This document shows, piece by piece, positions 43,786 to 62,237 of a stretch of 64,000 nucleotides of DNA. Position numbers and translations under genes: made by a program. Within the stretch, counting starts at the first letter, position 1; every line of letters begins with the position of its first letter. Source of the stretch: a virus. Under the pieces are notes generated by a model. It had not been told where the DNA came from. It made no database searches and saw only the letters and a list, made by a program, of their open reading frames with translations. Location: positions 29,680-93,679 of IMG/VR virus record IMGVR_UViG_3300018080_000142, one strand, 5' to 3'.

Positions 43786-46134
43786 ATGGCAGCGATAACA
43801 AAGGCAGACTTTTCGGTTGCAGCTAACGGTGATATCCGGCATGTAACCGGCACAAGTACTCATACGGTCCTCGAGGGGCATCGATGGCTGATGGATCTGC
43901 TTGATGATGATACAGCGACAGGTGATGACTATATCGATGTAACGAATGAAATTATTCCTTCTGCAAGATCAACAGATGAGATCATCACATTGAATGCTCC
44001 ATATAATATGGATGATCGATGCATCCAGAGGTTCTTCGGCGGTTCCATCACACAAGCTGGTGGTGATACAATTTACGGAGGACTCAGAATCATTGCTACA
44101 TTCAATGCAGGAACGACAATACCTGTTCTTATCCAGGATGACAAACTTCTGCCTAATTTCTGGGGTACATCCCTTAACCCGCTTGCAACAGAAGGTGTAA
44201 CACACAGATTCCTTGTAAAGATCAGAGATGGAGGTTCAGACATCGATGGTCGCAGGGTTCGCGGTCAGGTACGTGAATGGGGTGATACATGGGCTGAGTT
44301 TACTTCACTCATGGGAGAAGGAGAAGCTGTAATGTCATTTGGTAATACTCTGCAGGATGACTTTAACCAGACAGCCGTTGGTACTGTAGCCGGGTACACT
44401 GATGTTGTAAACAACCTGGAAGGATTCCAGCAGATTGACCTTGGAAACGGCAACGGAGATCGTAACTACCATTCTGAATGGGATAGGGCAAGCCGCACTC
44501 TTAATGGACTGTTCGAACGTGCGAAATGGCTGGCAATGCGATCCGGAGCTGAGGATACGAATAATGACACCGATGATGACTTTGTTGTGGATAATGCTAC
44601 GATTACAGGCGCGGCACAATCATTTGCTGTTGGAAGTAACGCCAAAATCGTGACAAGGGTAAGACTGCGACTGAAGAAAACAGGCTCACCAACAGGCAAT
44701 GTTACTGTTGCGATTTACTCGCATTCAGGAACCTATGGAACTTCATCCGTACCAAATGCCCTGGTTGCTACATCAGATGCAATAGATGCTACCCAGATAG
44801 ATTCAGCATACCGTGAAGTAGAATTTGTCTTTACCGGTGATGAACTCGTTGAATTAACAGCATCGACAAATTATTGTATTGTTATTGAACATCCCAACGG
44901 TGATGCTTCCAATTATGTACAGGTCAATGGCGATATCGGTGCTGGATCACACGGAGGTAACAGATCGCATAATACGGCAGGCTGGACGGCCGTAGCAGCA
45001 GATGATTTATGGTTTGAGGTTTACACTTCTTCCAAATTGTACGGATCAGCCGGGATCCTGTATCGTGGTATCACACACGACTGCGATTATGACGCAGAAG
45101 GTGGATCCGGTGTATCCCAGAATGAAATTCTTGATTGGACTACAGGTACGGGACGATTGCTTGCACTCGATGATCAGGGAACTTCCGGAACAGTTTGGTT
45201 ACAACTACTGACAGGTGTTGCTCCGGTGGAGGATGATGTACTTACGGGAGGATCCGGTAGCGTAACCGTCACTGCTGCCATCACTACAAGAAACCTTTCA
45301 CCAAATAATGTATTCCTGGGAACATTTACCGGGAACCTGACAGGCGCATATGGTGTAGGTGTAGAAGCAACGGATCTTACAAATCTTGACAAACTCAGGG
45401 ATCTCGAGAACGTTGTCCAGACACCCCCGAACAATGTTGATGTTATATACAATGCGGTAGCCGTAGGCGATATTCTCTTTGCTGCCCAAACATGGGAGGA
45501 TGCTCACACAGTTTCCGGATCCTACTCGATCGGTGATACTGCAATCACGCTGAATTCGGCAATTGATACCGATATGCCTCAGCCCGGCAGGATAAATATT
45601 AACGACACTGAATATAATTATATCAGTTATTCAGGTTCAGTAGTTACACTCTGCGCACCAGGTCTCGTTGAATCATTATCTGGTGGTGAGGATGCCGATC
45701 TATTTGCATTCAGGACAAATCAGTATACAAGTACCACAAATACCAGCGGTCAGGCTTACATCGAAGTAAATGAAGCAATCGAAACTTTTGACCGGACTGC
45801 AGGGTATATACGGATATGGAATGATGTCAACCTGGTTTGGGACAGATATCAGTATGATTCATACGATACTGCCACGAAGCGGTATACGTTGAATACTACT
45901 GCACATCCAACAGGTCTTGATCAGGGCTACACGGACAATGATCCTATTTTTGTACCTTTACTTGACGAGACTGTAACGACTTCGCCTGAGACAAGATCAC
46001 ATATCCATACAAGCGATGTCGATGCAAGATTGAGAGTATATGACAGCGCAGAGCCGATCGTACCGTTTGAAGTAACATATACAGTGACTACCAATGGAGC
46101 CACTGTTCAAGCAATACGTAATCCAGATGCCTAG
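43786..46134 (+). CDS. Large beta-rich virion/fibre protein with inserted choice-of-anchor-R-like domain
   Basis: 782 aa; shares a domain of about 135 aa with the 41522 protein; no signal peptide. Confidence 0.6.
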   Translation: MAAITKADFSVAANGDIRHVTGTSTHTVLEGHRWLMDLLDDDTATGDDYIDVTNEIIPSARSTDEIITLNAPYNMDDRCIQRFFGGSITQAGGDTIYGGLRIIATFNAGTTIPVLIQDDKLLPNFWGTSLNPLATEGVTHRFLVKIRDGGSDIDGRRVRGQVREWGDTWAEFTSLMGEGEAVMSFGNTLQDDFNQTAVGTVAGYTDVVNNLEGFQQIDLGNGNGDRNYHSEWDRASRTLNGLFERAKWLAMRSGAEDTNNDTDDDFVVDNATITGAAQSFAVGSNAKIVTRVRLRLKKTGSPTGNVTVAIYSHSGTYGTSSVPNALVATSDAIDATQIDSAYREVEFVFTGDELVELTASTNYCIVIEHPNGDASNYVQVNGDIGAGSHGGNRSHNTAGWTAVAADDLWFEVYTSSKLYGSAGILYRGITHDCDYDAEGGSGVSQNEILDWTTGTGRLLALDDQGTSGTVWLQLLTGVAPVEDDVLTGGSGSVTVTAAITTRNLSPNNVFLGTFTGNLTGAYGVGVEATDLTNLDKLRDLENVVQTPPNNVDVIYNAVAVGDILFAAQTWEDAHTVSGSYSIGDTAITLNSAIDTDMPQPGRININDTEYNYISYSGSVVTLCAPGLVESLSGGEDADLFAFRTNQYTSTTNTSGQAYIEVNEAIETFDRTAGYIRIWNDVNLVWDRYQYDSYDTATKRYTLNTTAHPTGLDQGYTDNDPIFVPLLDETVTTSPETRSHIHTSDVDARLRVYDSAEPIVPFEVTYTVTTNGATVQAIRNPDA

Positions 46135-46906: not shown

Positions 46907-47215
46907 ATGGCTGAACCTACACAAAAAGAGATGCTTGCAACCTTGGTTAAGGATGTCAAGTATATTATGGCAAAGCAGGGTGAGATGAAGCAGAAACAGG
47001 ATAATATGGATCTTAAGATCAATAATATCGAGATTGAACTTAGTGGTACGAGCATGGAACCAGGCAGAGGTGTTGTACATAGATTGATAAAAGCTGAAGA
47101 ATGTATTTCTAGTATCAAAAAAAAGCAGTACAAGATATTCACCTGGGGAGTGGTTATCATAACATTGTTGAACATCATTTTCTTGAGCGTTAAAACGTTT
47201 ATCAAAGGACAGTGA
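46907..47215 (+). CDS. Holin-like protein (coiled coil plus C-terminal TM)
   Basis: C-terminal IFTWGVVIITLLNIIFLSV; immediately upstream of the endolysin. Confidence 0.5.
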   Translation: MAEPTQKEMLATLVKDVKYIMAKQGEMKQKQDNMDLKINNIEIELSGTSMEPGRGVVHRLIKAEECISSIKKKQYKIFTWGVVIITLLNIIFLSVKTFIKGQ

Positions 47216-47219
47216 ATAA

Positions 47220-47885
47220 ATGGACCTTAAGTATCTCATAAATCCAACGTTAGCATTATCAATCGAGAATGCTTTCAAGAAATGGGTCGTTATCATCGAT
47301 GATGGGCATGGTTGGCTTACTTCCGGGAAAAGGAGCCTTGATGAATCCCTGCGCGAGAACGAGTTCAATTCATCGGTTGAGGATAAATTGACATTTTTGC
47401 TTGATAAATGCAGTGTTGAGTATTATTCACTCGCATCAGGATGGGCAGACGAAAAACTGGAAGTAAGGTCTGGTATTGAGAATAGTCTACATGAGGATGC
47501 TGTCAACAGGGGAAAGAAGGTTTTGGGAGTTTCCATCCATGCAGATGCCTATCCGCCAGATACGTCTGCACATGGATTTTGCGTTTATTATTATGAAAAG
47601 GGACCGAATTACTCACAGGAAGGAAAGATTCTGGCAAGGTATATTGCTGAGTCAATCATCGAAAGCGACAAAAGGAATAATCATGTCATTTCACCAAGGC
47701 ATGATCTGGGAATTTCCGGTGAGAATTTTCATATGCTGAGGGAAACTGATGGCATCTGGTGTCTCATTGAAAATGCCTTTATGACCAATGACAGGGATCT
47801 TATGTATCTGAAACGAGATAAATTCAGGAACAACCGCACACTTGCTATCCTATCAGGATTGTATGAATATGTGCTTAAGGAATAA
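47220..47885 (+). CDS. Endolysin, N-acetylmuramoyl-L-alanine amidase (Amidase_3)
   Basis: IDDGHG, LRENEFN, VSIHAD, LIENAFMTN. Confidence 0.9.
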   Translation: MDLKYLINPTLALSIENAFKKWVVIIDDGHGWLTSGKRSLDESLRENEFNSSVEDKLTFLLDKCSVEYYSLASGWADEKLEVRSGIENSLHEDAVNRGKKVLGVSIHADAYPPDTSAHGFCVYYYEKGPNYSQEGKILARYIAESIIESDKRNNHVISPRHDLGISGENFHMLRETDGIWCLIENAFMTNDRDLMYLKRDKFRNNRTLAILSGLYEYVLKE

Positions 47886-47907
47886 CAATAATTCAAAAAT
47901 GAGAATC

Positions 47908-48735
47908 ATGAAAAAGTTAATCATCTTATTCTTAGTACTTACAGGTCTGGTCATCACATCACAGGTAAACGCACAACCGAAACGGGTTATCCCGGTAGAT
48001 GAACAGGGAAATATAATTGGTACTTCGGGTGTAGCTACAACCGGTGGTGGCGGAGCATTGACCGGAGTATCAACATACTCGAACGTTTCAGGAAACTTCG
48101 AGGTCGAGGCAATCGATTATACGAATACCATCTGGATCATGAACGCACCCTTTACGGTTGGTGCTGAAAACCTTGCTGCAGGATCCGGGAAGGTATGGGA
48201 TACATCAACCGGCGAAATAACTGATCTGGATATGACGAAAATTGGTGCGATATCGGGTGATACGGTAACTCTGCCAAATCAAACCAATTTCACTCCGGAT
48301 GACTCTGTATTTCTGTTCCTGATCGCTCCGACAAAAGGGTTTGACATCGGTCAAAATGCCAGTAGGTCTACCTTACTGAATCCAGATTATGCACATTATA
48401 CTGATATCGATCATATCGTAAACTTCACGAACCTTGACACTGACTCGGTTTACGCTGTTTTTACTATGGAAAGCTATCAGTACATCAACCTGCATATAAA
48501 TGTTTCAGGAGGTGTCACAGTACGGGTTTACGTGACTAACAATTCTGCTGCAGCTGATGATAATCACTTGTCTGACTGGCTGAACTATGGAACTGAGATA
48601 CTTGGAGCAGGAAGTATAACTGATACGGAGGTATTTGAACCATACGGTCCCTTCCAGCCATTAAAGGTGATGATAAACGTTGAAACATCTGATGCTACAA
48701 ATGCTGCCGATGTTTGGCTTAGACGATGGTACTGA
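47908..48735 (+). CDS. Exported beta-rich protein
   Basis: Signal MKKLIILFLVLTGLVITSQVNA|Q; alternative start 47899. Confidence 0.7.
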   Translation: MKKLIILFLVLTGLVITSQVNAQPKRVIPVDEQGNIIGTSGVATTGGGGALTGVSTYSNVSGNFEVEAIDYTNTIWIMNAPFTVGAENLAAGSGKVWDTSTGEITDLDMTKIGAISGDTVTLPNQTNFTPDDSVFLFLIAPTKGFDIGQNASRSTLLNPDYAHYTDIDHIVNFTNLDTDSVYAVFTMESYQYINLHINVSGGVTVRVYVTNNSAAADDNHLSDWLNYGTEILGAGSITDTEVFEPYGPFQPLKVMINVETSDATNAADVWLRRWY

Positions 48736-48757
48736 CATAATTTAAATACATAGAAAA

Positions 48758-49216
48758 ATGAAAAAGACAATAGGATTAATCATTCTGATGCTTGCCATTT
48801 CATTGATTGGTAAGTCACAATTCACCTATTTTGGTGCAACTGTCGGACAGATCATAGCTGATCTCACGAACCCTCAGAAAATCGGAGCTTTGAACAGTTA
48901 TGCCGAGGGTAAATCAATAACATATATTAAGCATGTATATCTGATCCCTACATCTCAAGGCGAGGAATTATATTCCTTATTTGACGATGTAAATATGTCA
49001 ACTGACACAACTCTTTACAATAATCAGTCTGTAACAAGCTACTCGAGAACACTGGACTCACTTGAATCCTGGTTCGCTGATGATGATATCTTAAGGGTAT
49101 GGCTTGATAGTATTCTGCACAAGAAAGTTGAATATTGTACACATCCGGATACGTTGTCCGGATTAAATGATGCTGAAAAATGGTCAAAATACCTCGAGTT
49201 ATTGCGTTCACAATAG
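48758..49216 (+). CDS. Exported protein
   Basis: Signal MKKTIGLIILMLAISLIGKS|Q. Confidence 0.65.
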   Translation: MKKTIGLIILMLAISLIGKSQFTYFGATVGQIIADLTNPQKIGALNSYAEGKSITYIKHVYLIPTSQGEELYSLFDDVNMSTDTTLYNNQSVTSYSRTLDSLESWFADDDILRVWLDSILHKKVEYCTHPDTLSGLNDAEKWSKYLELLRSQ

Positions 49217-50811
49217 GTTTGTTCTTATGCCTTGTTCTTTCAGGGCAGTCCGCTGAAAATAACAAACTTATCTTTCAGGAGACATTTGATAATGAATTCT
49301 CGGTCCGAAGGAATGGTGGTACACCATATGTAACAACGTTTGTTAATGGTGTGGCCGTAATGAACGGTTCATCATCAGGTATTCAGACAAATAAAATTTT
49401 TAAGGGGAGTGGTTCAATTAGGGCTGTTTTTAAATCATTAAATATAACATCAGGTGATTATATTGTTGATTTCAGAACAAATGGAGGTACTGGATATTTA
49501 TATTTTAATTCGACCACAACTGTTTCGGGATCTGGTGGAGGAACAATGTATGTTGATGGAGTTCAAACCAATACAGTTTCAAATAATACAAAAGAAATAA
49601 TCTATACAGGGATATCCGTGGATAATAACTCTGGCTGGATTGGGCGCTGGAATGGTGGCGGTGGATATCTTGAGGCTGAATTTGATTTACTTGAATTATA
49701 TAATTACACCCTCTCAGCAGAGGAAGTTTTTAATCTATACAGCAATAGAAGATTTCAACCTGCAAGCACTCATGAGGAACAATTAGGTTATGAGCTTGGC
49801 TTGGATCCGGGTATGTCAGATTTGTCTGAATGGACAGAAACATCAACTGCGACTACCAAGCTTGTTACTGAGGGATTGCCCCCAGGATATTCTTCGGCCA
49901 TACAGATAAATATAACTGCCGGTGGTGGTATCACTATGGCTAACCCGCCGACAATGATTGTAGGTCAGAGATATAAACACAGTCTGCTTTACAGGGTTTT
50001 TAATGCTGCATGGAGGGTAAGAGGTTACCAGGGTAAAATCACTGGTGATTTCAGTACTGACAATCTTACAAATATAACCGGCAAGTGGAGCTGGTTACAT
50101 TCATATGGTGTCGGTTCTGGTGGTGGAGGCGCAGAGGGTCTACTGCTTGATAGAACAGGTGCGGATTCGATACAGGTAGCTTACTGGGCTTTTGTACCGA
50201 TCTATGCTGACAAAACTTCGAAGATTTTTGAATTGTCAGCACAATCAAAGGTTATTGAAGATAAACTTGGAAGTTCATTAACTATTTCCAATGTAACTAT
50301 ATCAAAACAAGGTGATGCCAATACAATGCTCTTTGTTGACGGTACGGATCCACGCATAGATTGTGGTGACCTTGGTGACTTTATTGGTGATCAAACGGTG
50401 ATATGGTGGATGAAACCATTTTCTGATGGGCAATCTGATGCCGGACGAGTTATGTCCAACGGTGAATTTGACGTGAGAATGGGCAGTTCGTTCAGGATCT
50501 ACTATACAAATGATCAGACAGATTGGAGATATTCACCAACAAATGCCTGGAATTACAATACATGGATTCATTATACAATTACAAGACAAAGAGATGGAAC
50601 TACGATGTTATATCTTAACGGAGAATTACAAGCATCAACCGGTACGGACGGTGAGCCTGATGCATCGTTAACAAATATGTACATCGGTAATAACAGTGGA
50701 AACGGCGTTGACTTTGATGGCTTGTTCGGCGATGTAAAGATCTATGAAGGAATATTATCAGCTGAAGAAGTGTCTCAATCATATACATCTGAAAAACACT
50801 TGTACAAATGA
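49180..50811 (+). CDS. Exported LamG/concanavalin-like lectin-domain protein
   Basis: Signal ...LCLVLSG|Q; MYVDGV...LYNYTLSAEEV and LYLNGEL...FDGLFGDVKIYEGILSAEEV. Confidence 0.75.
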   Translation: MVKIPRVIAFTIGLFLCLVLSGQSAENNKLIFQETFDNEFSVRRNGGTPYVTTFVNGVAVMNGSSSGIQTNKIFKGSGSIRAVFKSLNITSGDYIVDFRTNGGTGYLYFNSTTTVSGSGGGTMYVDGVQTNTVSNNTKEIIYTGISVDNNSGWIGRWNGGGGYLEAEFDLLELYNYTLSAEEVFNLYSNRRFQPASTHEEQLGYELGLDPGMSDLSEWTETSTATTKLVTEGLPPGYSSAIQINITAGGGITMANPPTMIVGQRYKHSLLYRVFNAAWRVRGYQGKITGDFSTDNLTNITGKWSWLHSYGVGSGGGGAEGLLLDRTGADSIQVAYWAFVPIYADKTSKIFELSAQSKVIEDKLGSSLTISNVTISKQGDANTMLFVDGTDPRIDCGDLGDFIGDQTVIWWMKPFSDGQSDAGRVMSNGEFDVRMGSSFRIYYTNDQTDWRYSPTNAWNYNTWIHYTITRQRDGTTMLYLNGELQASTGTDGEPDASLTNMYIGNNSGNGVDFDGLFGDVKIYEGILSAEEVSQSYTSEKHLYK

Positions 50812-52760
50812 AATATTTACTGACAATATCAATACTGTTTCTTTCGTTATGCTCGAGTTCTCAGATATTTGAGACTCAGTTTGACAAGGGCAGTTACATA
50901 GATAAGCATACTCAGTCAGTTCATTCTACGGAGTCAAACAATACATTTGTCCGAAGTGAAAAAGGAATTGCTCTTTACTGTGGGAAAACAGGTTATATAT
51001 CATATAATAACACTACCGATGTTTTTGACAAGCTAGATGATGTAATGACTCTCGGATCTGCTTTCAGCGGCGAGGTTTGGTTTAAGATTGATGAAGAAGA
51101 TGTTGTTCAGCACATAATTGGATTTACCAACAGAGGTGGTGACAGGTATGTATTGGGGATTCACTCCAATGACAATCTAAGATTTTCTGAGCTTGGCGGG
51201 GATGCGGTATCAGGTTTTTCTTTGAAAGGTGATACATGGTATCATATAGTTTTTGCACAGTCTGCCAGTAATGTTCTCAGTCTTTACCTTAATAATGTTG
51301 AGCTTACTGATAACAATGCAAATACCCTTCACTATGCAAATGAGTTCCTGTCAATATGCTCCGGCACATCCGGCGGATCTCCCTTGCAGGGAATTATTGC
51401 GAAAGTTGCTATCTATGATTATGTTCTCACCTCAACAGATCGAAGCAGACTATACGAATCGTTTGTAGGCGCACAATTGCCAGCTGCAGAAAAGTATCCC
51501 AGGTATGGTAATTGGAGTAAACCGACTTTAATAAATGAAGATGGCCTGGTAGCTGCATATAATATGATTCCCAGTCCTGATGGATATTTGGTAGATATTT
51601 CAGGCAATGGACACACTAATGCAATCGCCTTTACCGGATCCGGAATCTCGGGGAATCAAAGTGGAATGTATTTCGTAAATGGAACCGGACTTGCGCTTCA
51701 GGGAATAAATTTTGGGGCGAATTGGGTGGATGATATTGATACGATCTATACAATTTGTATCAGAGCCAAGACAACTGAAGATGATGTTATTATCGGTGAT
51801 GGGTCAAGTTCTGATTATGTATATCCGGCAAGTGTTTCTTCAATGCGACATCGTTATGGTGGTGGCACGTTAGTAACTTATACGCTGCCTGTAAATACAA
51901 TTAATTTCAGCGAATTTTTCGATGTTGTTATTTCTCGAAATGGTACGACAAGTTACGCATGGGTTAACGGTATAGCTGCAACAGATAATCCGAAAATAAC
52001 TGCAGGAAGTGAATCATTTGTATTTAGCTGGATAGGCGGATATGGTGGACTTCCCTTGATTGGAGTGATAGATGATATAAAAATCTATGATTATCCATTT
52101 ACAGAACAGCAAGCAATTAATTATCACAACGAGTTTGCCAAACGTCCAGTACTTGTAGAGACTTTCGAGTATGATCCCGTTGGTGACAATGTTCCGCAGG
52201 GATGGCAGGAAGGGACAGGAACTTATATAATAAAAGAACTGACTTCAGATGATGCTGTACTTTCTGATCTAACGACAGGTACAAAATACCTTGAATGCAC
52301 TTCTGCTGGAACAATAGGATTTCCGATACAAAGGACAGTTTACGGAACAGTTGAATTCTATTGGAACAAATCAGAGGATGGACTTCCTTTGACTCATTTC
52401 TACAATACCAGAGTTGATGGATCTGGTGATGGAATCTTATTTCGTGCAAATAATAGTGAAATACTCGGCCTTTACTATGTTGATGATGGATCATTAACTG
52501 CAAAATTCTACTCCGGTTCTTTTTATGCAGATACCGAAACATGGCATAAAATCAAAATAACCAGTACGGCAGATGGAGAAAGATATGCTTACATAAAAGG
52601 CGGCTCCTTTGGTAATAGTTATGTCTTGATGGATGATAGCGGTAGTGGATCAAATCCTTTTACTGACAACACAAATGCAACAGGAGGGTATTTTGTGCTT
52701 GATTACGATATAGGTGATAAAATTGGTCCGATAGTAACAACTGAAGGTGTAAAACAATAA
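50808..52760 (+). CDS. Exported multi-LamG lectin-domain protein
   Basis: Signal ...LSLCSSS|Q; WYHIVF...LYLNN...VAIYDYVLT, DISGNG, IDDIKIYD. Confidence 0.75.
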   Translation: MKYLLTISILFLSLCSSSQIFETQFDKGSYIDKHTQSVHSTESNNTFVRSEKGIALYCGKTGYISYNNTTDVFDKLDDVMTLGSAFSGEVWFKIDEEDVVQHIIGFTNRGGDRYVLGIHSNDNLRFSELGGDAVSGFSLKGDTWYHIVFAQSASNVLSLYLNNVELTDNNANTLHYANEFLSICSGTSGGSPLQGIIAKVAIYDYVLTSTDRSRLYESFVGAQLPAAEKYPRYGNWSKPTLINEDGLVAAYNMIPSPDGYLVDISGNGHTNAIAFTGSGISGNQSGMYFVNGTGLALQGINFGANWVDDIDTIYTICIRAKTTEDDVIIGDGSSSDYVYPASVSSMRHRYGGGTLVTYTLPVNTINFSEFFDVVISRNGTTSYAWVNGIAATDNPKITAGSESFVFSWIGGYGGLPLIGVIDDIKIYDYPFTEQQAINYHNEFAKRPVLVETFEYDPVGDNVPQGWQEGTGTYIIKELTSDDAVLSDLTTGTKYLECTSAGTIGFPIQRTVYGTVEFYWNKSEDGLPLTHFYNTRVDGSGDGILFRANNSEILGLYYVDDGSLTAKFYSGSFYADTETWHKIKITSTADGERYAYIKGGSFGNSYVLMDDSGSGSNPFTDNTNATGGYFVLDYDIGDKIGPIVTTEGVKQ

Positions 52761-52763
52761 ATC

Positions 52764-53039
52764 ATGGAAAAACCATTTTTCGGATCCACGCTGATCCAGT
52801 CATACATAGAGTTTGATACCGAACGTGGGTTTATGCGGTTTGGTGTTGAGAATGAAAGGTTCTACATCGAAATCGATGAAGTAAGGACATTTCTTACCGA
52901 TGGTGGTGCAAATTGGGTTATAAGCAAGGGAGATATATTCTACAGGTTTAATATAGAAGAATCTACCGGTGATTTTCTTGTTGAACAATACGTAAGTGGA
53001 TCCTGGGTAGAAGCATTCAGGGTTGGTAATCAAGCATAA
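52764..53039 (+). CDS. Hypothetical protein without signal peptide
   Basis: 91 aa; ends EQYVSGSWVEAF. Confidence 0.55.
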   Translation: MEKPFFGSTLIQSYIEFDTERGFMRFGVENERFYIEIDEVRTFLTDGGANWVISKGDIFYRFNIEESTGDFLVEQYVSGSWVEAFRVGNQA

Positions 53040-53043
53040 AGCC

Positions 53044-55890
53044 ATGAAAAAAATTATCGTAATAACAATTCTACTGGTAACAGCATTAACTGTCAAGGCG
53101 CAGTTCTGGGCTGCAACCGGTTTCGGAGGAATGAACCGAACAAGTCCGACAGCACTTTTTGTTGATTCCATAGGAAGGGCAGGTGCTGATACCGTTATAT
53201 ATATAGGTGGGAAAGCTGTATTCCGGTCAACTGTTGGTGGTGGCGCACACGGATCCACTCACGTATCAGGTCAGTCAGACCCCGTCCCAGTATTTACTTC
53301 TACCGTGACAGGGCTTGTACCCTCAAGTGGTGGAGGATCTGTAAACTATCTTAGAGCTGATGGTACGTGGGATGCACCCCCTGGTGGTGCAAGTGCCTTT
53401 CTTGATCTGACAGATGTACCTGCTTCATATGCAGGTGCAGCGGGTTACATGACGATGGTGAACGGGACTCCGGATGGCCTTGTATTCACAGATCCATCTG
53501 GTTATGACCTTTCTAACTTCAATGATAATCTCAGTTATGAAAATCCGTTAACTTTCAGCAATGGTCTGACCAGGACAGTAGATGCAATAGCTTGGGGTGG
53601 ATCCTTGTCGAGTGCTACAACAATAACGGGTGACCAGGCGAACACATGGAAACTTAGAGGGGCGCAGTCATCAACAATGTCCTCACAGATATTTCTAAAT
53701 ACAAATGCAGGTCTAGGGTTTGAATCTTATACAGGTGACACATACTCAGGAACTACCTTCTCAGAGTTCCTTATGGAAGAAGATAGTATTATATTACAGG
53801 CATCTACGGCAAATCTAACCAGAGGACTTGCAATCGGAGTGTGGACAGACATGACCATATTTGATAATGCAAATTCAACAGGTCTTGTTTATGCTCTTGA
53901 TTACAGTTCCCTCGGGACAGGAGATCCAAGATGGCTTCCTGATTGGGAGGCGGTGTCAAATCATATTGCAGGAGTTGACGTATATACAGGCACAGGTGGT
54001 CCTAAAAGTCCAAGCGCACCACAGGACGGTTATGTTATTGCCTGGGATAATCCGAATAATAGATACGATCTTGTGGCTGATCAAACAGGAGCAACTGTTT
54101 TTACGGACCTGACAGATGTACCTTCTTCTTATGCAGGTTCAGCTGATTACTTCCTTATGGTGAATTCCACGCCTAACGCAGTCATATTTGCGGATCCATC
54201 AAGTTATAATCTGAGCAACTTCAATGATAACCTGTCAGGGAATAAGCATCTGGACCATTCAACGGTATCGATATCTACACAGTATAGTTTGACGGGTGGT
54301 GGTGATATATCATCTACAAGGACACTTAATCTGGTGAATGATGCTGCGAGCCCTGGAAATAATAAACTATATGGCACAGATGGGGGAGGTGTAAAAGGTT
54401 GGTTTGATATTCCTGCAGGTCTGGGTACTCATGATATCCTGAGCGCTGATCATGGAGATGCCGAAACTCATACTGTACTCAGAGGTGATCTTATGACCGG
54501 GCAGACAGCTACACCGGAATGGAGAGCTTTGCCGATATCAGCTACAACCACTCACTTGCTGAGAACAGATGGAACGGATATCTATTGGGGAGCATTTAAC
54601 TTCGCTGACCTGGGGACGACACCAACTACTTTCTCCGGTTACGGGTTATCAGATACCGAAGCAAATTTTGATAATGCTATCAGCGATGGTAATGTAGCCT
54701 GGGACGGTGGCAATCATCATGATCTTTTCGGTGATTTTGTCGCAGACGAGCATGTGGATCACACATCTGTTTCAATAGCAACCGCTGCCACGTCCGGATT
54801 GTCCGGAGGCGGTGATCTGACAGCTACCAGGAACTTGGCACTTGATTTCACTGCACTGACCGGAGTTACAACACTTGCCGATAATGACACGCTTTCGGCC
54901 TTCATTACCGGGACCGGTCAAAGGGCAATACCATACTCGAGCTTCCTGACTGAACTGGAAACGGATCTCAGCCTCGAAGATCCACTTACCTTTGATAATG
55001 GATTGACTAGGACGGTAAATGAAGTAGATCTCGGTGGAACGCTTTCCGAATCATTCGCAATTGAAGGTGTTTATACGAACCGATGGGAATTTAAGAATTA
55101 CAGAGGATCGCCATCCGCTTCCGGTAGGATCTATGGTGATGTAGATGGAGGGATTAGTATGGTTGGTTATGACGGAGCTACTTATAATGGTGATTCATCA
55201 ACGGTGAAAGTTGATCAGACCGGTGCTTATTTCCAATCGTGGGCTTCTGGAACAATAATTAAAGAGCTTGCTATCCATCCGGATTATATCAGGTTTACAG
55301 ATAACCAGGATACGAAAGGTGCTATTTACGGTGCTGATTATTCCCTTCTCGGCCGTAAGGACGATCGCTGGATTCCAGACTGGGAGGCCGCAGGCGATAC
55401 CGCAGGGAATCAGCTTGGAGGCCAGGGAGTAGATGCAACAATAACAAGCCCTGGGGCAGCTCAGGACGGTGATGTAATAACATGGAACCAAACGAACAGT
55501 GAGTATGAGATGACTGATGTTGTCGATCCTGGTGAAGCTTCAGGGATAGTATATTGCGACATTGATACGATCTTGTATACCAATACATCGCAGACAACTA
55601 CCGTGACACTACCGACAGGATCCGTTATCCATGAAATCGATGTATATGTAGCTACCGCATTTACAGGTACGGGAACGGATCTGATTGATATCGGTATATC
55701 AACGTCAGGCAACAGGTATGAGGATGATCTCGATGTTTCCACAGGCACGGGTAGCTTTGCCACATTGACCTTGACAAATGTAAAAGATCGGATGGCAACA
55801 TCGACAAGCGTTGTATTTCAATATTTTGACCAGAACTCTGACGCAGGAGCTGGTGAGGCTTATGTTTATGTACAATACTCAAGACCATAA
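53044..55890 (+). CDS. Exported tail-fibre-like protein with internal duplicated modules
   Basis: Signal MKKIIVITILLVTALTVKA|Q; fibre motifs YLRADGTWDAP, LTDVPxSY x2, GGGD(I/L)xxxRxL x2, PLTFxNGLTR x2. Confidence 0.75.
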   Translation: MKKIIVITILLVTALTVKAQFWAATGFGGMNRTSPTALFVDSIGRAGADTVIYIGGKAVFRSTVGGGAHGSTHVSGQSDPVPVFTSTVTGLVPSSGGGSVNYLRADGTWDAPPGGASAFLDLTDVPASYAGAAGYMTMVNGTPDGLVFTDPSGYDLSNFNDNLSYENPLTFSNGLTRTVDAIAWGGSLSSATTITGDQANTWKLRGAQSSTMSSQIFLNTNAGLGFESYTGDTYSGTTFSEFLMEEDSIILQASTANLTRGLAIGVWTDMTIFDNANSTGLVYALDYSSLGTGDPRWLPDWEAVSNHIAGVDVYTGTGGPKSPSAPQDGYVIAWDNPNNRYDLVADQTGATVFTDLTDVPSSYAGSADYFLMVNSTPNAVIFADPSSYNLSNFNDNLSGNKHLDHSTVSISTQYSLTGGGDISSTRTLNLVNDAASPGNNKLYGTDGGGVKGWFDIPAGLGTHDILSADHGDAETHTVLRGDLMTGQTATPEWRALPISATTTHLLRTDGTDIYWGAFNFADLGTTPTTFSGYGLSDTEANFDNAISDGNVAWDGGNHHDLFGDFVADEHVDHTSVSIATAATSGLSGGGDLTATRNLALDFTALTGVTTLADNDTLSAFITGTGQRAIPYSSFLTELETDLSLEDPLTFDNGLTRTVNEVDLGGTLSESFAIEGVYTNRWEFKNYRGSPSASGRIYGDVDGGISMVGYDGATYNGDSSTVKVDQTGAYFQSWASGTIIKELAIHPDYIRFTDNQDTKGAIYGADYSLLGRKDDRWIPDWEAAGDTAGNQLGGQGVDATITSPGAAQDGDVITWNQTNSEYEMTDVVDPGEASGIVYCDIDTILYTNTSQTTTVTLPTGSVIHEIDVYVATAFTGTGTDLIDIGISTSGNRYEDDLDVSTGTGSFATLTLTNVKDRMATSTSVVFQYFDQNSDAGAGEAYVYVQYSRP

Positions 55891-58800
55891 TGAACGGTAG
55901 GAAATTAATATTAACATTATCTGCCATATTCATTCTTGGTAGCTTATTTTCGCAAAGATATGCTGTCAAGGATTCTCAAGGAAGGATTCTTCGTGGTCCA
56001 TCAGGCTTTATCTTAGCAGATACCTCTGCCATAGGTATTGGTGAAGGTCCGCCAATTTTGCTCTCAGCAGAAATAGGTTTATTGGATGATTCCATTATAG
56101 TTGCATTGTTCAATGAATTACTCGATGAGACTTCAGTTCCACCAGCATCAGCTTTTTATGTAACAGAAGAAACTGGTGGTTCGCCAACAATCGTTGGAGA
56201 TGACTTTTCAACATCATACAATCCCTTACATAATGATCCTGATTGGAATCAAAGCAGCGGTAGTGGAACTTTTGCATCTACAAGTGGCTATGCATATTGT
56301 ATTACCAGCAATGGAGATAATTACGTATATCACTCAGGTACTTTTGATGATGATCAATATGCATGGGTAATATTGAATGATGTTACTAACTATTTTGGAC
56401 CGGCGGTAAGAGCCGATGCTGACTCAGCAATACTATTTTACGCAAACGCAGCCGGCTGGTATGTTGGAAGGGTGATGAGCGGTAGTTGGGAAACTATAGG
56501 TAGTGGAAGCAGATCATTTAGTGATGATGATACTTTATATACTGCAGCAAGTAATGATTCAATTAGGTGTATACATAACAGTACGCAAATCTTTTATGAT
56601 GAAATGGGCTCATATTATGTTGGTAATGGATCACCGGCAATGGGATCTTATCTTGCAGTTGATGGTGCAAAGGAATTTGAAGGTGGTGAACTGGGTGCAT
56701 CCGGTTCAATATCTGAAATAGGGACCAATGCTATCAGCATTAATGATGACAGTTTATTTGTAGCACTTGATTCAACCGCAGAAATTGGGGCCAATTATCT
56801 CATTGATTTTACAAATACATCAAATCCGAAACTTAAAGATCTTGCAGGTTATGAAGTAGCTGATTTCGTTGATACCATTGTAGCAAATAATATCGGAATA
56901 TCTCCCCCGCCTGATACTGCATATCAGTTTGATATCTCTGGTCAATTAAGAGATTCTATAGATGCAACACAGATTCTTGGTTTTGACCCGACAACAACAG
57001 CTGTCATGCTACGCGGATCATATACGACCTTTCCAACAACCACTTCGGAAGGCACTTTGATACATCTCGGAGATACATCATCTGTAAAAGCCAAGCATAA
57101 ATTCAGTGCAGCGGATGATAATTCTTTAGCCTATCTATCCATGTTCGTGTCAAATGGTACTTACAACACAGAATACAACAGGGATACAACATTTGTCGAT
57201 AGTGTAGGACAACAGGAAATGATTCCGGAAGGTGACTGGTGGGTGGATTCCGAGGATGGTAGTAACAGCAATGATGGTACTACACCTGCAACTTCGGTCA
57301 GGGATCTACAAAAAGTATTTTCACTGAACATACAACCAAATGATACTGTTCGTATAAAACGTGGAAGTGTAGTTTCAGGTCAGATAACTCTTGCAGATGC
57401 AGGACTATTCATTGATGGTGAAGAATGGGGATTGCCAGCCGATCCAAAAGCAATATGGATAGGTGGCGATACTATGTCAGGCACATGGAATGAATCGCAT
57501 GCTGATATTTGGGGAATACCATTTGATGATGCAACCAGGGCAATGTCATTCGTGGTTGATGGAATAAGTAAGCCTGTCGCAACAGGTCCGTGGCGCGATA
57601 TTACAGGTGGTGCTTCCACAACGCAGTTTCAAGATAATACCATAGGTGAGTCTAGTGGCTACTGGGATGGAGCCTGGGTGCAGTCTCAGATGAGTTCAGA
57701 ATGGGCGTTTCAATCAAGAGAAGTAACTGACCAGACAACAATAACAATCACGACAGGTACAGTTGCTTATGGATATTCAGCCTCGAGACAATATAGATTC
57801 ATGCATCACAATGACACAAATGTAATGTATGGTAATAAAGGTCTTGCTCATTTCAATGATTCAGTATTTATGTACTCACTATCAAATCCCTCGAGTAGAG
57901 TTGTAATTGCATCACAAGATGACCACGCTATTATTATGAATAGTATGAATGGTACTGTTGTTCAGGGAATAGATTTTCTTGGTTTCATTGAAGAAGTGTT
58001 TGACATAAATACGTCTGACAATGTGAAGATCCTTAACTGCGGTGGTGGTGGTGCAAGAATGTTTTTCAATGCTTATCAAAGTGATAATCTTGAGGTGGAT
58101 GGAGGAAATGATACAGCAGAATTCAGAAATATGTATGAAGATGCATTCATATACGATGGTTCTGATGGTGGTCTGATTGAGAATATGATATTCAGTAATG
58201 TGGGATATCCTTACGGTTTTGTCGGTATGACTACTGACTTAAGTGAGCATGGTGGTGCACAGTTCGATAACCAAATCGATGGTGTGACACTTCAATATTG
58301 TACATTTGATTCTGTAGCTGGAAGGGCGATGAATACTGATGAACAAAATGATCAGCAAAAAAATATAAGATGGTACAAAAACTATGTTCATATTGCCTGT
58401 CAATTAACCAGTGATTGCGGTTGTATTTATGCAGTCTATGACAAGGATAATTCACCGTCAACAAGAAATGAAATCATAGGTAATATCATCGTTAATGACG
58501 GTACTGACAATGGAATATATCTGGATAATGGAACGGATTATTGGTTGCTGGATAGTAATTTCGCATATAATCTTAAAATACCATTCTACGTACACACATA
58601 TGATAATACTAACGATATAATTTTGAGAAGAAACTCAGGAATAAGAAATCTTCAAACAACGAACTCGGAAAACTATGTTATGTTGATAGGAACATACATT
58701 GGTTCAGGCCATGTTGGAGATAGTATCGAAGTCAAGCAAAATGAGCTTGTATCGACATATCTAGGATCACCCGGTTTAAGAAGTTTTGCATTAACAATAA

Positions 58801-59201
58801 ATGATGATGGAGGCAATCAAACGTTTACTAACTGGGATTCTGACTCAAATCACCTGTTCGTTCCACATGGAAATGGAGGTGGACCAAGTTACGATGATGC
58901 AGTCAATGATGATGATAATACTCCAACTTACAGAACTGTTGCAGAATATACTTCTGTCGGTAATGGAGGTTCAAACGAGGTTGCTACTATGGACTTCTTT
59001 ACCACAACCGGTAAGGCATGGATAAGTGAAGCACCCTGGAATGATTCAGAGGATGATTTTATAGTTGTATATAATCCAACTGGCGGGTCAATGAGTGTTT
59101 CATTTACCGGTAATTTCAAAGACAAGAATGGAAATGCCGAATCATCACCATTTACTGTAAAACCTTGGAGCCATAGAATATTATATAAGGATCCACCATA
59201 A
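55890..59201 (+). CDS. Exported multidomain protein: SwmB-like domain plus right-handed beta-helix (pectin-lyase-like, possible depolymerase)
   Basis: Signal ...GSLFS|Q; FNELLDETSVPPASAF...LKDLAGYEVADF; WVDSEDGSNSNDGTTP...NDTVRIKRGS; GIYLDNG. Confidence 0.75.
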   Translation: MNGRKLILTLSAIFILGSLFSQRYAVKDSQGRILRGPSGFILADTSAIGIGEGPPILLSAEIGLLDDSIIVALFNELLDETSVPPASAFYVTEETGGSPTIVGDDFSTSYNPLHNDPDWNQSSGSGTFASTSGYAYCITSNGDNYVYHSGTFDDDQYAWVILNDVTNYFGPAVRADADSAILFYANAAGWYVGRVMSGSWETIGSGSRSFSDDDTLYTAASNDSIRCIHNSTQIFYDEMGSYYVGNGSPAMGSYLAVDGAKEFEGGELGASGSISEIGTNAISINDDSLFVALDSTAEIGANYLIDFTNTSNPKLKDLAGYEVADFVDTIVANNIGISPPPDTAYQFDISGQLRDSIDATQILGFDPTTTAVMLRGSYTTFPTTTSEGTLIHLGDTSSVKAKHKFSAADDNSLAYLSMFVSNGTYNTEYNRDTTFVDSVGQQEMIPEGDWWVDSEDGSNSNDGTTPATSVRDLQKVFSLNIQPNDTVRIKRGSVVSGQITLADAGLFIDGEEWGLPADPKAIWIGGDTMSGTWNESHADIWGIPFDDATRAMSFVVDGISKPVATGPWRDITGGASTTQFQDNTIGESSGYWDGAWVQSQMSSEWAFQSREVTDQTTITITTGTVAYGYSASRQYRFMHHNDTNVMYGNKGLAHFNDSVFMYSLSNPSSRVVIASQDDHAIIMNSMNGTVVQGIDFLGFIEEVFDINTSDNVKILNCGGGGARMFFNAYQSDNLEVDGGNDTAEFRNMYEDAFIYDGSDGGLIENMIFSNVGYPYGFVGMTTDLSEHGGAQFDNQIDGVTLQYCTFDSVAGRAMNTDEQNDQQKNIRWYKNYVHIACQLTSDCGCIYAVYDKDNSPSTRNEIIGNIIVNDGTDNGIYLDNGTDYWLLDSNFAYNLKIPFYVHTYDNTNDIILRRNSGIRNLQTTNSENYVMLIGTYIGSGHVGDSIEVKQNELVSTYLGSPGLRSFALTINDDGGNQTFTNWDSDSNHLFVPHGNGGGPSYDDAVNDDDNTPTYRTVAEYTSVGNGGSNEVATMDFFTTTGKAWISEAPWNDSEDDFIVVYNPTGGSMSVSFTGNFKDKNGNAESSPFTVKPWSHRILYKDPP

Positions 59202-59213
59202 AAACATATAGTT

Positions 59214-59516
59214 ATGGAATTTTTAATGTATTTTGGGTTAGCGATTGCTGGTGTGATACTTCACATAGGCATGAAATTTCGTGATGAGATCACGAAGAAC
59301 CCTGATAAGTCTTTCATTGAAATCAAAGAACTGTTCCAATGGAGGAAACATTTGTTCAGAGCTGCCGTAAGTGTTGTTATAGCAGGAATATTAGTTGGTA
59401 TACGTGATGAGATAGCTGATATTTATCCAATCACAAAGATAACAGCTGTTTTTCTCGGCTATGCTGCTGACAGCGTGTTCAAGAATATCGTGCCTGAAAA
59501 TCTGAGGGATGCCTGA
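59214..59516 (+). CDS. Holin-like membrane protein
   Basis: Three hydrophobic segments, FLGYAADSV motif. Confidence 0.6.
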   Translation: MEFLMYFGLAIAGVILHIGMKFRDEITKNPDKSFIEIKELFQWRKHLFRAAVSVVIAGILVGIRDEIADIYPITKITAVFLGYAADSVFKNIVPENLRDA

Positions 59517-59772
59517 ACAAACTTTCATAGAGAAGGTCAAATCTTATGCAACTCTGGTAGTTGCTTTCATAGCAATTATTGGATGGATTTCCACCTTTGT
59601 AGCTAACAGGGTAGGTCTCAGAAAGGATGTCGAGAATATACAGACTGATGTAACAGAGTTGAAGGAGGATGTTGAGTCATTAAATGCCACTCAGATTCAA
59701 GGTGGCAATGAGGATATTAGAATGCAGACTTTCATCGAACAACATATGAAATTGCATGAGCAGATGGATTAA
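59509..59772 (+). CDS. Membrane-anchored coiled-coil protein (lysis region)
   Basis: TM helix followed by heptads. Confidence 0.55.
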   Translation: MPEQTFIEKVKSYATLVVAFIAIIGWISTFVANRVGLRKDVENIQTDVTELKEDVESLNATQIQGGNEDIRMQTFIEQHMKLHEQMD

Positions 59773-59986
59773 ATATGTATTAATAGCAATAATTACGGCA
59801 ATTATTGTTGATATATCTTTGGGCGATGATCCCCCAAGAGATACTATTAAGGCTGAGGCTGAGATCGAAGTTCCGAGCAGGTCGTTGCAGATCGAGCAGA
59901 AAGTCCTGAACGATCAGATAAAAGAACGTCTGACTAAGTGGGATTCATTGATTATGAAACAGGATTCATTAATAAAGAAAGAATGA
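59756..59986 (+). CDS. Small membrane/exported protein (lysis region)
   Basis: N-terminal hydrophobic helix. Confidence 0.5.
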   Translation: MSRWIKYVLIAIITAIIVDISLGDDPPRDTIKAEAEIEVPSRSLQIEQKVLNDQIKERLTKWDSLIMKQDSLIKKE

Positions 59987-60501
59987 GATATTCACTGATT
60001 ATACTGATTTTACTGCTGTCAGGATGTTCTGCCCAAAAAAGAATTGCCAGAGGCCACAAGCTGATCGAAAAGTACCCGGTAATACTTGATAGTTACATTA
60101 CTGTTAAGGATTCTGTCAGCTACAAAGACACTACGATCTATCGTGATACAACCATTTATGATACACTTCCGGGAGAATATATCATCAAATCCGTTCAGAT
60201 ACCATGTCCGGATATCAAAATCGATCCGATAGAGAGCATTATAAGGGGCGTGAAGGTCCGATCTTGGATTGACAATGGTAGACTATACCAAGAGGTAGAT
60301 ATCCCGGATATGGTCTACAGATGGCGTTTAGATTCGGCAATTGTTGAGAAGAACAGATATGAAAAAAGGCTTGTCTCTGAAATAATGCGGCCACCGCCAG
60401 ATATTGTGATACCAAAATTGTTTCATTTCTATAGATCAGGATTCTTTATTTTGGCTGTACTATTTATTATTACCATATTCATGTTAATACTGAGAAAATG
60501 A
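59983..60501 (+). CDS. Lipoprotein with C-terminal TM helix (unimolecular spanin-like)
   Basis: MRYSLIILILLLSG|C lipobox and C-terminal GFFILAVLFIITIFMLIL. Confidence 0.6.
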   Translation: MRYSLIILILLLSGCSAQKRIARGHKLIEKYPVILDSYITVKDSVSYKDTTIYRDTTIYDTLPGEYIIKSVQIPCPDIKIDPIESIIRGVKVRSWIDNGRLYQEVDIPDMVYRWRLDSAIVEKNRYEKRLVSEIMRPPPDIVIPKLFHFYRSGFFILAVLFIITIFMLILRK

Positions 60502-61208
60502 AAATCGAGGATCTTGTATATGACGTTTTCGAGATAAAGGGAGCTACTGAGGATGACTCGGATCTTGACGAACTGTGGGTGCTTCACAAGATCAACAACT
60601 ATCGTTCGGCACTCATTAAAAGAGATTTTGATCTTTCAAATGAGATTAACCCGACCTGGCTGCAGAGAGTCCATAAGTTCAGCTGGGAAAAAACCAATGC
60701 CGCCGATGATCCTGCAATCACGTATAACAGCGTCAGATTAGGTAAGTACACCCTCCCGGCAGTAATATCCCTTCCGGATGATATGGGTACTTATAGAGTG
60801 ACTGGATCCTCGGCAATTCTTCAGCTCGAGGTGATTGACTTTGCCTTGCTGATGATGAAAGCCGAGATCGGTGAGCAGATCCCAGGAGAGTACGGATATT
60901 ACTCCAAGGTAGGGAATGTCATCTATTGCTATCCTTACATTATGGAAGGTTCGGCTATGATCGTAGCTGATAATCCTCTCGATGTACAGATCCACGATCC
61001 ATCGACCGGCGCTTTGAGAGATATGGTATTCACCGATGAATACCCGCTTGACAGAACTCTCGCCCAGGAAGCATTGCTCATGTTCCTTAAAAATGACATG
61101 GCCATTGCTGAAGGAGCAATAACAGATATTATCAACGATGCACAAGATCAGCTTAAAATATTAAAGGATGTTCGGACAACGCAACAAATACCGAGAAATA
61201 CGCAATAG
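60498..61208 (+). CDS. Tail ring protein (crAss-like)
   Basis: LVYDVFE...DDSDLDE...INNYRSALI...DEYPL...DIINDA pattern. Confidence 0.65.
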   Translation: MKIEDLVYDVFEIKGATEDDSDLDELWVLHKINNYRSALIKRDFDLSNEINPTWLQRVHKFSWEKTNAADDPAITYNSVRLGKYTLPAVISLPDDMGTYRVTGSSAILQLEVIDFALLMMKAEIGEQIPGEYGYYSKVGNVIYCYPYIMEGSAMIVADNPLDVQIHDPSTGALRDMVFTDEYPLDRTLAQEALLMFLKNDMAIAEGAITDIINDAQDQLKILKDVRTTQQIPRNTQ

Positions 61209-61557: not shown

Positions 61558-62237
61558 AAAGAGTAACCATAAGACAGGCGATGATTGATGCGGTAGAAGA
61601 AACTGATGCAAATCTTGCAAGGTATCCGAATCAAGCATTGAAATGGGCAAAGTATATTGAAAGAGAGATCGGTTCATATCTTGGTTACAAGGTAAAAGCC
61701 AAGACAATAACATTGAACGGTTGCTACCTAGACCTACCAACCGACTGTTACAGAGTTGAAGGTGTAGTCCTGGGAGATTACGAGGATGAATGCAACATCC
61801 AGTACCGGGATATCACATATCCAATAATCCGGGAAGAAACGATCGAGGGCGCAGATGTATATGACAGGGATCTGACTAAGCTATGGATCCCCGCCGAGAC
61901 AACATGGGTGAGCAGGTTATTCTGGGAAGAAATTGGCGATCAACTGCACATGATCAATGAATATGAGGATCAGGATGTCACTTTAATCTATAATTACACT
62001 GAAACCGATGATAAAGGATACTGGCTGGTAAATGAATCGCACATCGATGCCATCAAAAAGTACATCAAGTATAAGTACTCAGAGAAATACCGATGGAAAA
62101 TGCTGAAAAGCGATAAGTTGCTGCGCCAGGGACATCTTGTCGTGATTGAGGATCTGAAAAGAGATTACAACCTTGCCGTGAGGAATGCTAGGGCAGAGGA
62201 TGGCCGTGAATCACCATTTGAAACAGAACAATATTAA
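61554..62237 (+). CDS. Tail tubular/ring protein
   Basis: LPTDCY, VTLIYN..TDDKGYWLV...IDAIKKYI; precedes the stabilisation gene. Confidence 0.7.
   Translation: MKRVTIRQAMIDAVEETDANLARYPNQALKWAKYIEREIGSYLGYKVKAKTITLNGCYLDLPTDCYRVEGVVLGDYEDECNIQYRDITYPIIREETIEGADVYDRDLTKLWIPAETTWVSRLFWEEIGDQLHMINEYEDQDVTLIYNYTETDDKGYWLVNESHIDAIKKYIKYKYSEKYRWKMLKSDKLLRQGHLVVIEDLKRDYNLAVRNARAEDGRESPFETEQY

Follow-up and report, generated by a model that had tools for sequence, protein, structure and literature searches.

The final 64 kb of a 93,679-bp virus record in IMG/VR (IMGVR_UViG_3300018080_000142, rated complete by CheckV), here called the window and numbered from its first nucleotide, contain a run of seven consecutive late genes on the plus strand (47908-59201), six of which open with a predicted Sec/signal peptidase I (SPase I) leader followed directly by Gln. 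The products of these six genes, designated SP1 to SP6, include lectin-, fibre-, and beta-helix-type proteins. The phage is a distant, uncultured crAss-like phage, probably of Bacteroidota, recognizable by Crassvirales-type markers (Pfam Crass_capsid, crAss_MUZ, and CrAss_Ring_2; PHROG terminase and portal), with a terminase large subunit (TerL) merely 22-25% identical to those of named crAss phages. As a first-pass annotation of the window had claimed, the block is set within the lysis cassette, with an Amidase_3 endolysin upstream and a set of holin-like and u-spanin genes downstream.

Six leaders of the Bacteroidota type

The six leaders exhibit the same anatomy: the n-region is basic, the hydrophobic core is uncharged and about 10-15 residues long, and the polar c-region consists of small residues. 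At all six predicted cleavage sites, position -1 is a small residue, position -3 is small or aliphatic, and the residue at +1 is Gln. Gln at +1 is the Bacteroidetes Q-rule for SPase I substrates (Bochtler et al., 2018, PMC5837995; PMC10653852), and host substrates that obey this rule have the same leader anatomy in addition to the same Gln. Our leader calls come from two heuristic scans of our own together with reading of the sequences; they recover all six N-termini and all six Gln residues pointed out in the first-pass annotation, and likewise its observation that the beta-rich proteins encoded upstream at 40708, 41522, and 43786 have no leader.

Across the 93.7-kb genome, the signature occurs in seven of 102 predicted genes, and six of those seven are contiguous. 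As background, a single one of 372 proteins of at least 250 amino acids encoded by the related phage loci fetched for comparison carries such a leader. A contiguous run comprising six of the seven occurrences in a genome is therefore far from chance. The six leaders have no common sequence at the DNA level and are thus not copies of one leader. The seventh gene (149 amino acids, ...LLFS↓QDVF; G000 26535-26984, plus strand) lies 3.1 kb before the start of the window, far from the block.

None of the six proteins has a lipobox with Cys at +1, and none has a C-terminal sorting domain of the type IX secretion system (T9SS), as searched with Por_Secre_tail models (PF18962/TIGR04183/TIGR04131) at E ≤0.1 in Pfam and E ≤1 in NCBIfam. 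Their predicted destination is therefore the periplasm, in agreement with the first-pass annotation. The leader-bearing proteins are not enriched in cysteine, which makes disulfide formation an unlikely reason for export. On these signs, the six proteins are very probably exported via Sec and SPase I, and they probably mature in the periplasm rather than in the cytoplasm.

Two further observations concern leader-like sequences. Short contigs of three other metagenomes match no more than about 35 nt coding for the SP1 leader (within 47898-47940) and then continue into unrelated sequence; either chance similarity of AT-rich sequence or a leader common to other genes may account for this. In the replication arm, a 96-amino-acid open reading frame on the minus strand (8147-8437) has a signal-peptide-like N-terminus, MRKWMVLLTFLTMSLYC↓A, whose putative cleavage site may be of the lipoprotein type.

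One module with and without leaders

SP1 to SP4 constitute a conserved syntenic module, in the order beta-sandwich protein, protein of about 150 residues, LamG protein, and second LamG protein, which is present in many phage contigs of about 40 kb to 233 kb, other crAss-like genomes included. In one of these loci (L042) it resides between terminase and portal, which marks the module as mobile. Among non-redundant orthologues with complete N-termini in the fetched phage loci, a leader is carried by none of 29 SP1-like, none of 11 SP2-like, and none of 126 SP3/SP4-like proteins, the copy in a sibling phage included. The first-pass annotation had named orthologues without the N-terminal extension as one of the findings that would refute its proposal. 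For SP1-SP4 all 166 are indeed leaderless, a result that we read as the mark of a lineage-specific add-on and not as a refutation of export.

The manner in which the leaders join their proteins is informative. The SP4 leader directly abuts the conserved start of the family (SSS↓QIFETQF, vs. M(S/G)KIFETQF in leaderless orthologues), as do the leaders of SP3 (LSG↓Q...LIFQETF vs. M.ES...LIFRETF) and SP2 (GKS↓QFTYF vs. M..GFTYY, of which the GFT.Y start is conserved; alignment A4). With the leader placed exactly 5′ of the conserved start, cleavage would restore nearly the same mature protein. Three leader-bearing matches to SP4, all of the Q-rule type, exist in a large protein database (P0050, P0053, and P0058). 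When P0050 and P0053 are placed in a tree, both group beside leaderless proteins, as SP4 itself does, which means that the SP4 family acquired the leader in at least two or three separate events. A search of metagenome contigs with P0050 returned no match. The leader reads as a precise, lineage-specific, switchable add-on that was put on all four partners at once, and such joint tagging is as expected if the partners need one compartment.

In several loci that carry the leaderless module (L064, L075, L085, L103/L104, and L107), small Q-rule leader proteins of 130-205 amino acids are encoded directly 3′ of the LamG genes, near lysis genes. The hosts of these phages are probably Bacteroidota as well, and the small proteins may act in the periplasm in connection with lysis.

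A structural lead is available for SP1. Its AlphaFold2 (AF2) model (pLDDT 78) consists of two sandwiches, at residues ~30-120 and ~140-253, connected by a linker of low confidence. In an exhaustive structural alignment of the C-terminal domain to 48,161 chains, XepA ranked first (Z 9.8) and YomS second (Z 9.4), with unrelated entries at 8.5 or below. XepA and YomS are proteins of Bacillus subtilis prophages (PDB 6i56, 6i5o). XepA has two beta-sandwiches joined by a 30-residue linker (PMC6834076), a layout that the SP1 model appears to share. XepA is the "exported protein" of PBSX, produced late from a gene beside holin and amidase, and it is reported to be exported past the cytoplasmic membrane and to be absent from mature PBSX particles (PMC6834076). 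Other searches with SP1 had the following outcomes: Foldseek found no match to the model in the PDB at E ≤0.001 and unnamed phage proteins only in BFVD, an Atlas feature search gave a weak match only (0.77), the XepA family (Pfam PF27453) matched neither SP1 nor 24 members of its family, and an SP1 profile search of PDB sequences did not find 6i56 or 6i5o. The modelled likeness of SP1 to XepA is by fold only and is treated here as a lead. The two systems also differ in that the hosts of XepA and YomS are Gram-positive and in that the SP1 orthologues of other phages have no leader.

The first-pass annotation had assigned fibre, lectin, and beta-helix types to the large products of the block. 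Pfam bears this out for the LamG domains of SP3 and SP4, and homologue comparison does so for the fibre modules of SP5, whereas the beta-helix of SP6 is a candidate assignment by remote homology. SP5 qualifies as a fibre through its homology to fibre modules and its place in the fibre slot. Of 40 SP5 homologues, 36 are without any hydrophobic N-terminus, several have classic fibre N-termini, and three (P0001, P0026, and P0028) carry Q-rule leaders; P0001, when searched in viral contigs, gave two weak partial matches only. Long leaderless fibres terminate in the C-terminal domain seen in SP5, and this domain is therefore of the receptor-binding type. SP6 has no close relative, as a homologue search returned SP6 alone. 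Its residues ~447-920 resemble bacterial right-handed beta-helix proteins (Pfam Beta_helix/NosD), of which about half begin with a signal peptide and one ends in a T9SS tail, and SP6 is a candidate polysaccharide lyase or hydrolase.

The seventh gene of the run, g52764, encodes a leaderless protein whose N-terminal ~50 residues are the conserved start of sibling-phage proteins of 143, 228, and 462 amino acids (alignment A5); by tblastn and jackhmmer, its relatives are in siblings only. A constant N-terminus followed by a C-terminal part that varies typically marks a domain for virion attachment, and this pattern makes g52764 a candidate virion-attachment (adaptor) domain. No slippery sequence for a frameshift fusion of g52764 to SP5 was found.

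The variable slot in sibling and cultured phages

Three complete sibling genomes (G001-G003), with major capsid proteins (MCPs) 76-87% identical to that of the phage, have in common with it the region from terminase to g38720 and again that from ring protein 2 onward. In these siblings, the 20.6-kb stretch 39838-60498 is replaced by a segment of 2.5-8 kb with a fibre-like gene and different lysis genes, and g52764 is the sole gene of the block with relatives in them. A tblastn search for the amidase encoded at 47220 found no homologue in the three genomes; G001 and G002 have M15-peptidase-like lysins instead, as judged by eye from their N-termini. Given that the endolysin type is swapped between siblings, the lysis cassette is as exchangeable as the fibre genes. 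Another sibling, L017 (MCP 80% identical), has a different cassette in the same slot with three consecutive leader genes (L017:15452-20105), which encode a 619-amino-acid fibre, a 177-amino-acid protein, and a beta-helix protein unrelated in sequence to the block. A further sibling, L004, has leaderless SP1- and SP2-like genes in this slot.

Some of these proteins are rich in the Bacteroidota O-glycosylation sequon D(S/T)(A/I/L/V/M/T). SP6 has 17 sequons vs. 6.4 expected, the u-spanin-like protein 5 vs. 0.5, the neighboring small membrane protein g59756 3 vs. 0.3, and the 619-residue fibre of L017 20 vs. 4.5, mostly in a repeated D-T-A-(A/S)-M-L unit; SP2 has 4, vs. 1 in all 11 leaderless orthologues together. 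The enrichment would fit periplasmic residence of some of the proteins and is not general, as sequons are not enriched in SP3, SP4, or SP5, nor in the leader proteins of the Cellulophaga phages described below.

Cultured phages provide the closest parallels. In the Cellulophaga baltica phages phi18:3 (NC_021794) and phi10:1 (NC_021802), runs of three to five consecutive leader-bearing fibre, tail, or pectate-lyase proteins are encoded directly 5′ of the holin-like and endolysin genes. The Q-rule leaders are on gp085-gp087 of phi18:3, directly 5′ of lysis genes, and on gp091-gp094 of phi10:1, with gp095 added by eye, adjoining holin-like genes and the endolysin; the phi10:1 set includes a pectate lyase and a tail fibre. 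According to notes in their GenBank records, which are the source of the virion evidence, gp085-gp087 and gp091-gp094 are structural "based on experimental MS/MS proteomics analysis" (MS/MS, tandem mass spectrometry). These phages belong to Pachyviridae and Assiduviridae and the present one is crAss-like, their leader proteins have no detectable sequence similarity to SP1-SP6, and their virion status comes from MS/MS annotation, whereas the present phage is known from sequence alone. The crAss-like phage phi14:2 (NC_021806, g080-g088) has the same layout as the window, namely, capsid-proximal genes, a variable fibre/enzyme slot, lysis genes, ring, and muzzle, with only its muzzle and ring proteins similar in sequence to those found here. 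Its slot encodes fibre and pectate-lyase proteins that are MS-confirmed in the virion and are all leaderless.

Porphyromonas gingivalis prophages also encode Q-rule proteins, which are small, of unknown function, and discussed as host-modifying (PMC10367356). In the present phage, by comparison, the leader-bearing proteins are mostly large, are of fibre, lectin, and beta-helix type, and are encoded in the slot for host recognition. That study is the nearest that a literature search produced, with no paper found on leaders of phage fibres, those of phi18:3 and phi10:1 included. Sec leaders, fibres, lectins, and lysis cassettes are all known components, and their combination is undescribed in the literature searched; new here are one module compared in its leader-bearing and leaderless forms, the repeated independent gain of leaders, and the XepA lead. 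The block itself has few counterparts in databases: megablast of the block and tblastn of SP4 found no match among GenBank phages, SP5 matched short fragments only, PHROGs gave no match for any of the six leader-bearing proteins, and a scan of genome contigs yielded two loci only, one of them in a Bacteroidota metagenome-assembled genome, too little to assign a host firmly.

The features of the locus are collected in Table 1. The endolysin has neither a leader nor a signal-anchor-release (SAR) segment. The two large leaderless beta-rich proteins of the variable slot, encoded at 41522-43603 and 43786-46134, have no match in Pfam, PHROG, or NCBIfam, are absent from siblings G001-G003, and are candidate fibres assembled in the cytoplasm. 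They have a common internal segment (…KK(S/T)xSPTG…(I/V)Y(A/S)HSGT(F/Y)GTSSVP…), which suggests a duplicated domain within the slot. A 111-amino-acid protein encoded between the fibre-type genes (41185-41520, plus strand) contains eight Cys (7%) in a CxxCxxCC-type cluster and has no family match. Genes in the block are separated by 0-22 nt or overlap. Scans of the sequence for promoter-like and terminator-like sites and for the Bacteroidota -7 motif TANNTTTG gave counts at chance level, so co-transcription of the block is suggested by gene packing only. Among the RNA runs listed, none contains the block.

Table 1. Features of the leader block and its surroundings (window coordinates; TM, transmembrane segment; ↓, predicted cleavage)
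Feature	Position	Strand	Basis or remark
Major capsid protein, crAss type	35376-36884		Pfam
Leaderless beta-rich protein, 693 aa	41522-43603	+	Variable slot
Leaderless beta-rich protein, 782 aa	43786-46134	+	Variable slot
Holin-like or lysis-associated protein, 102 aa, single C-terminal TM (residues 77-95)	46907-47215	+	Hydropathy scan; directly 5′ of endolysin
Endolysin, N-acetylmuramoyl-L-alanine amidase	47220-47885	+	Pfam Amidase_3 E 1.8e-22; PHROG 435 endolysin E 7e-19
SP1, 275 aa	47908-48735	+	Mature part modelled as two beta-sandwich domains plus linker
SP1 leader (predicted)	47908-47973	+	VNA↓Q; ITS↓Q alternative
SP2, 152 aa, small, predicted helical	48758-49216	+	Orthologue of the ~150-aa second module gene; low-confidence model, pLDDT 66
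SP2 leader (predicted)	48758-48817	+	GKS↓Q
SP3, 543 aa, two LamG (concanavalin-A-like lectin) domains	49180-50811	+	Pfam Laminin_G_3 E 2e-26, two stretches
SP3 leader (predicted)	49180-49245	+	LSG↓Q
SP4, 650 aa, LamG, paralogue of SP3	50808-52760	+	Pfam Laminin_G_3 E 1e-20
SP4 leader (predicted)	50808-50861	+	SSS↓Q
g52764, 91 aa, leaderless seventh gene	52764-53039	+	Between SP4 and SP5
SP5, 948 aa, mosaic of phage tail-fibre modules with exchangeable C-terminal domain	53044-55890	+	Homologue comparison
SP5 leader (predicted)	53044-53100	+	VKA↓Q
SP6, 1103 aa, Ig-like segments and putative right-handed beta-helix (~447-920)	55890-59201	+	Remote homology (phmmer/HMMER)
SP6 leader (predicted)	55890-55952	+	LFS↓Q
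Holin-like membrane protein, 100 aa, 2-3 TM	59214-59516	+	Hydropathy scan; lysis-cassette position
Small membrane protein, one TM	59509-59772	+	Hydropathy scan
g59756, small membrane protein, N-terminal TM	59756-59986	+	Hydropathy scan
u-spanin-like protein, lipobox LSG↓C and C-terminal TM (residues 152-170)	59983-60501	+	Lipobox and hydropathy scans
Tail ring protein 2, crAss type, first conserved tail gene past the variable slot	60498-61208	+	Pfam CrAss_Ring_2 E 1.8e-10; conserved in siblings G001-G003
Muzzle protein, crAss type, cut by the window end	62237-64000	+	Pfam crAss_MUZ E 9.6e-32; conserved in siblings

Predicted export and the possible fates of the proteins

If the leaders act as predicted, the six products would be made alongside the lysis proteins and translocated by SecYEG, and cleavage by SPase I would leave Gln as the new N-terminus, which the host can cyclise to pyroglutamate. 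The six proteins would then fold and accumulate in the periplasm, where they would stop, since they have neither a T9SS sorting domain nor a lipobox. Upon lysis, which the holin would start by opening the inner membrane and which the amidase and u-spanin would bring to completion, the periplasmic proteins would meet the particles built in the cytoplasm. At this point the fibre SP5 and the beta-helix enzyme SP6, possibly along with the lectin module SP1-SP4, would attach as outer host-recognition gear. We favor this sequence of export and then attachment, by which periplasm-matured proteins join particles at lysis, with a confidence slightly short of even; its steps of export, pyroglutamate formation, any glycosylation, and particle attachment are those that we infer. 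It draws on the six contiguous leaders, their exact placement, the joint tagging and independent gains, the L017 cassette, the phi14:2 slot, and the sequons in SP6, SP2, and the u-spanin. Attachment in particular is suggested by the MS/MS annotation in two cultured phages, the equivalence of the slots, and the fibre nature of SP5.

Several observations weigh against this reading. Export and attachment are here predictions from sequence, and the sequons that would accompany periplasmic residence are patchily distributed. The position of SP1-SP4 varies between phages, reaching the terminase-portal interval in L042, which is unusual for tail parts. SP1 is most like XepA, a protein that is exported yet absent from PBSX particles (PMC6834076). 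Candidate fibres without leaders are encoded by the phage itself at 41522 and 43786, and three siblings with the same head and tail core are without the whole block. Finally, the detection by mass spectrometry of leader proteins in particle preparations could be due to co-purification.

Alternatively, the proteins may be exported and never join the particle, a reading that we hold to be doubtful, though a serious contender. In such a scenario, they would form a late periplasmic set for lysis and release that loosens or strips capsule, lipopolysaccharide (LPS), or matrix from inside and persists as free hardened factors after lysis, with SP1 as an XepA-like membrane- or wall-active protein, SP3 and SP4 as lectins, and SP6 as a beta-helix depolymerase, all pyroglutamate-capped and partly glycosylated. 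The nesting of the block in the lysis cassette would be natural for such a set, and the top two structural matches of SP1, XepA and YomS, are prophage lysis-cassette proteins, the former reportedly exported and not in particles (PMC6834076). Leader-bearing and leaderless forms of the module would both end outside the cell after lysis, which would explain a switchable route. The module is mobile and not bound to tail genes, siblings manage without the block, the phage has other, leaderless fibre candidates, and roughly one in two remote SP6 relatives is a bacterial beta-helix protein that is secreted. Set against this are the analogous leader proteins of phi18:3 and phi10:1, which MS/MS annotation places in the virion, and the true fibre modules and receptor-binding-type C-terminus of SP5, which if free would vie with progeny phages for receptors; the match to XepA, moreover, is by fold without sequence support, its Z of 9.8 comparing with about 8 to 8.5 for unrelated entries. 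The first-pass annotation had allowed for joining the virion at lysis and for roles in the envelope; joining the virion gains support from the MS-annotated leader fibres of Cellulophaga phages, and an exported non-virion role from the XepA-like SP1. A mixed outcome is quite possible, in which the particle carries SP5 and SP6 and the module SP1-SP4 stays free.

The remaining alternatives are improbable to differing degrees. Phage envelope proteins that mask receptors are known, T5 Llp and Cor among them, and proteins of receptor- and glycan-binding type directed to the envelope could mask or destroy receptors in the manner of T5 Llp, to exclude superinfecting phages or to keep progeny off debris. 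Such a role is improbable for a block of genes in a late structural and lysis array with almost no intergenic space, which would be expressed late for exclusion and whose roughly 11 kb of coding sequence would be a high cost for it; without T9SS or lipoprotein sorting, the proteins would not reach the outer face where surface receptors are, and binders freed at lysis would also block the receptors of neighboring cells. The adhesin, decoy, and exclusion roles suggested in the first-pass annotation found no specific support, and late co-expression with lysis genes fits them poorly. The leaders might instead be uncleaved inner-membrane anchors, or their export might be leaky, with a cytoplasmic fraction that assembles. 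Export is predicted from sequence here, the orthologues function without a leader, and large, fast-folding beta-structures are sometimes poor Sec substrates. This is nonetheless a shade less probable still: all six leaders combine a short h-region with a c-region of helix-breaking or small residues that follows the -3/-1 rule, with Gln next at +1, as cleaved SPase I substrates of Bacteroidota do and anchors do not (PMC5837995), SP3, SP4, and SP6 have no internal Met between leader and conserved start from which a leaderless isoform could arise, and the missing slippery site gives no means of fusing g52764 with SP5. Least probable, and very much so, is a non-functional block, either an assembly chimera or passively carried host DNA, as the absence of the block from three sibling genomes and the mostly bacterial relatives of SP6 might suggest. 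The sequence, block included, is found on contigs from a sediment metagenome that is a possible source of the record; a single 12.8-kb contig covers 44000-55242, joining the block to leaderless phage genes, other contigs tile the remainder, and fragments at least 99% identical occur in other sediment and seawater metagenomes. The block accordingly belongs to a phage in circulation and is no product of misassembly. Its strand, gene packing, and base composition are those of the flanking phage genes, all its reading frames are uninterrupted, and SP1-SP4 are orthologous to a module of many phage contigs.

In textbook accounts, the assembly of tailed phages is wholly cytoplasmic. If the exported proteins do end on the particle, as export followed by attachment would have it, assembly gains a final step that is post-lysis and extracytoplasmic, and host enzymes could modify the receptor-binding gear through a pyroglutamate cap and O-glycosylation, thereby affecting stability, antigenicity, and host range. 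More broadly, and with only slightly more reserve, we suggest that tailed phages of Bacteroidota may split their construction, with heads and tails built in the cytoplasm and Sec-routed recognition gear, pyroglutamate-capped and partly O-glycosylated, added after the holin has acted; the leaderless and leader-bearing forms of the module would then represent a natural switch of route. If the proteins are instead free exported factors, they would represent a large unrecognized class of lysis-linked lectins and enzymes that phages send to the periplasm, the Gram-negative equivalent of XepA. On either reading, the label "tail fibre" that annotation pipelines give to genes of this kind overlooks a predicted switch of compartment. 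A clean comparison is at hand in one four-gene module that has leaders here and none in a sibling, and the Cellulophaga phages make the question testable at the bench. The phages concerned are those of Bacteroidota, a major phylum of the gut and the sea.

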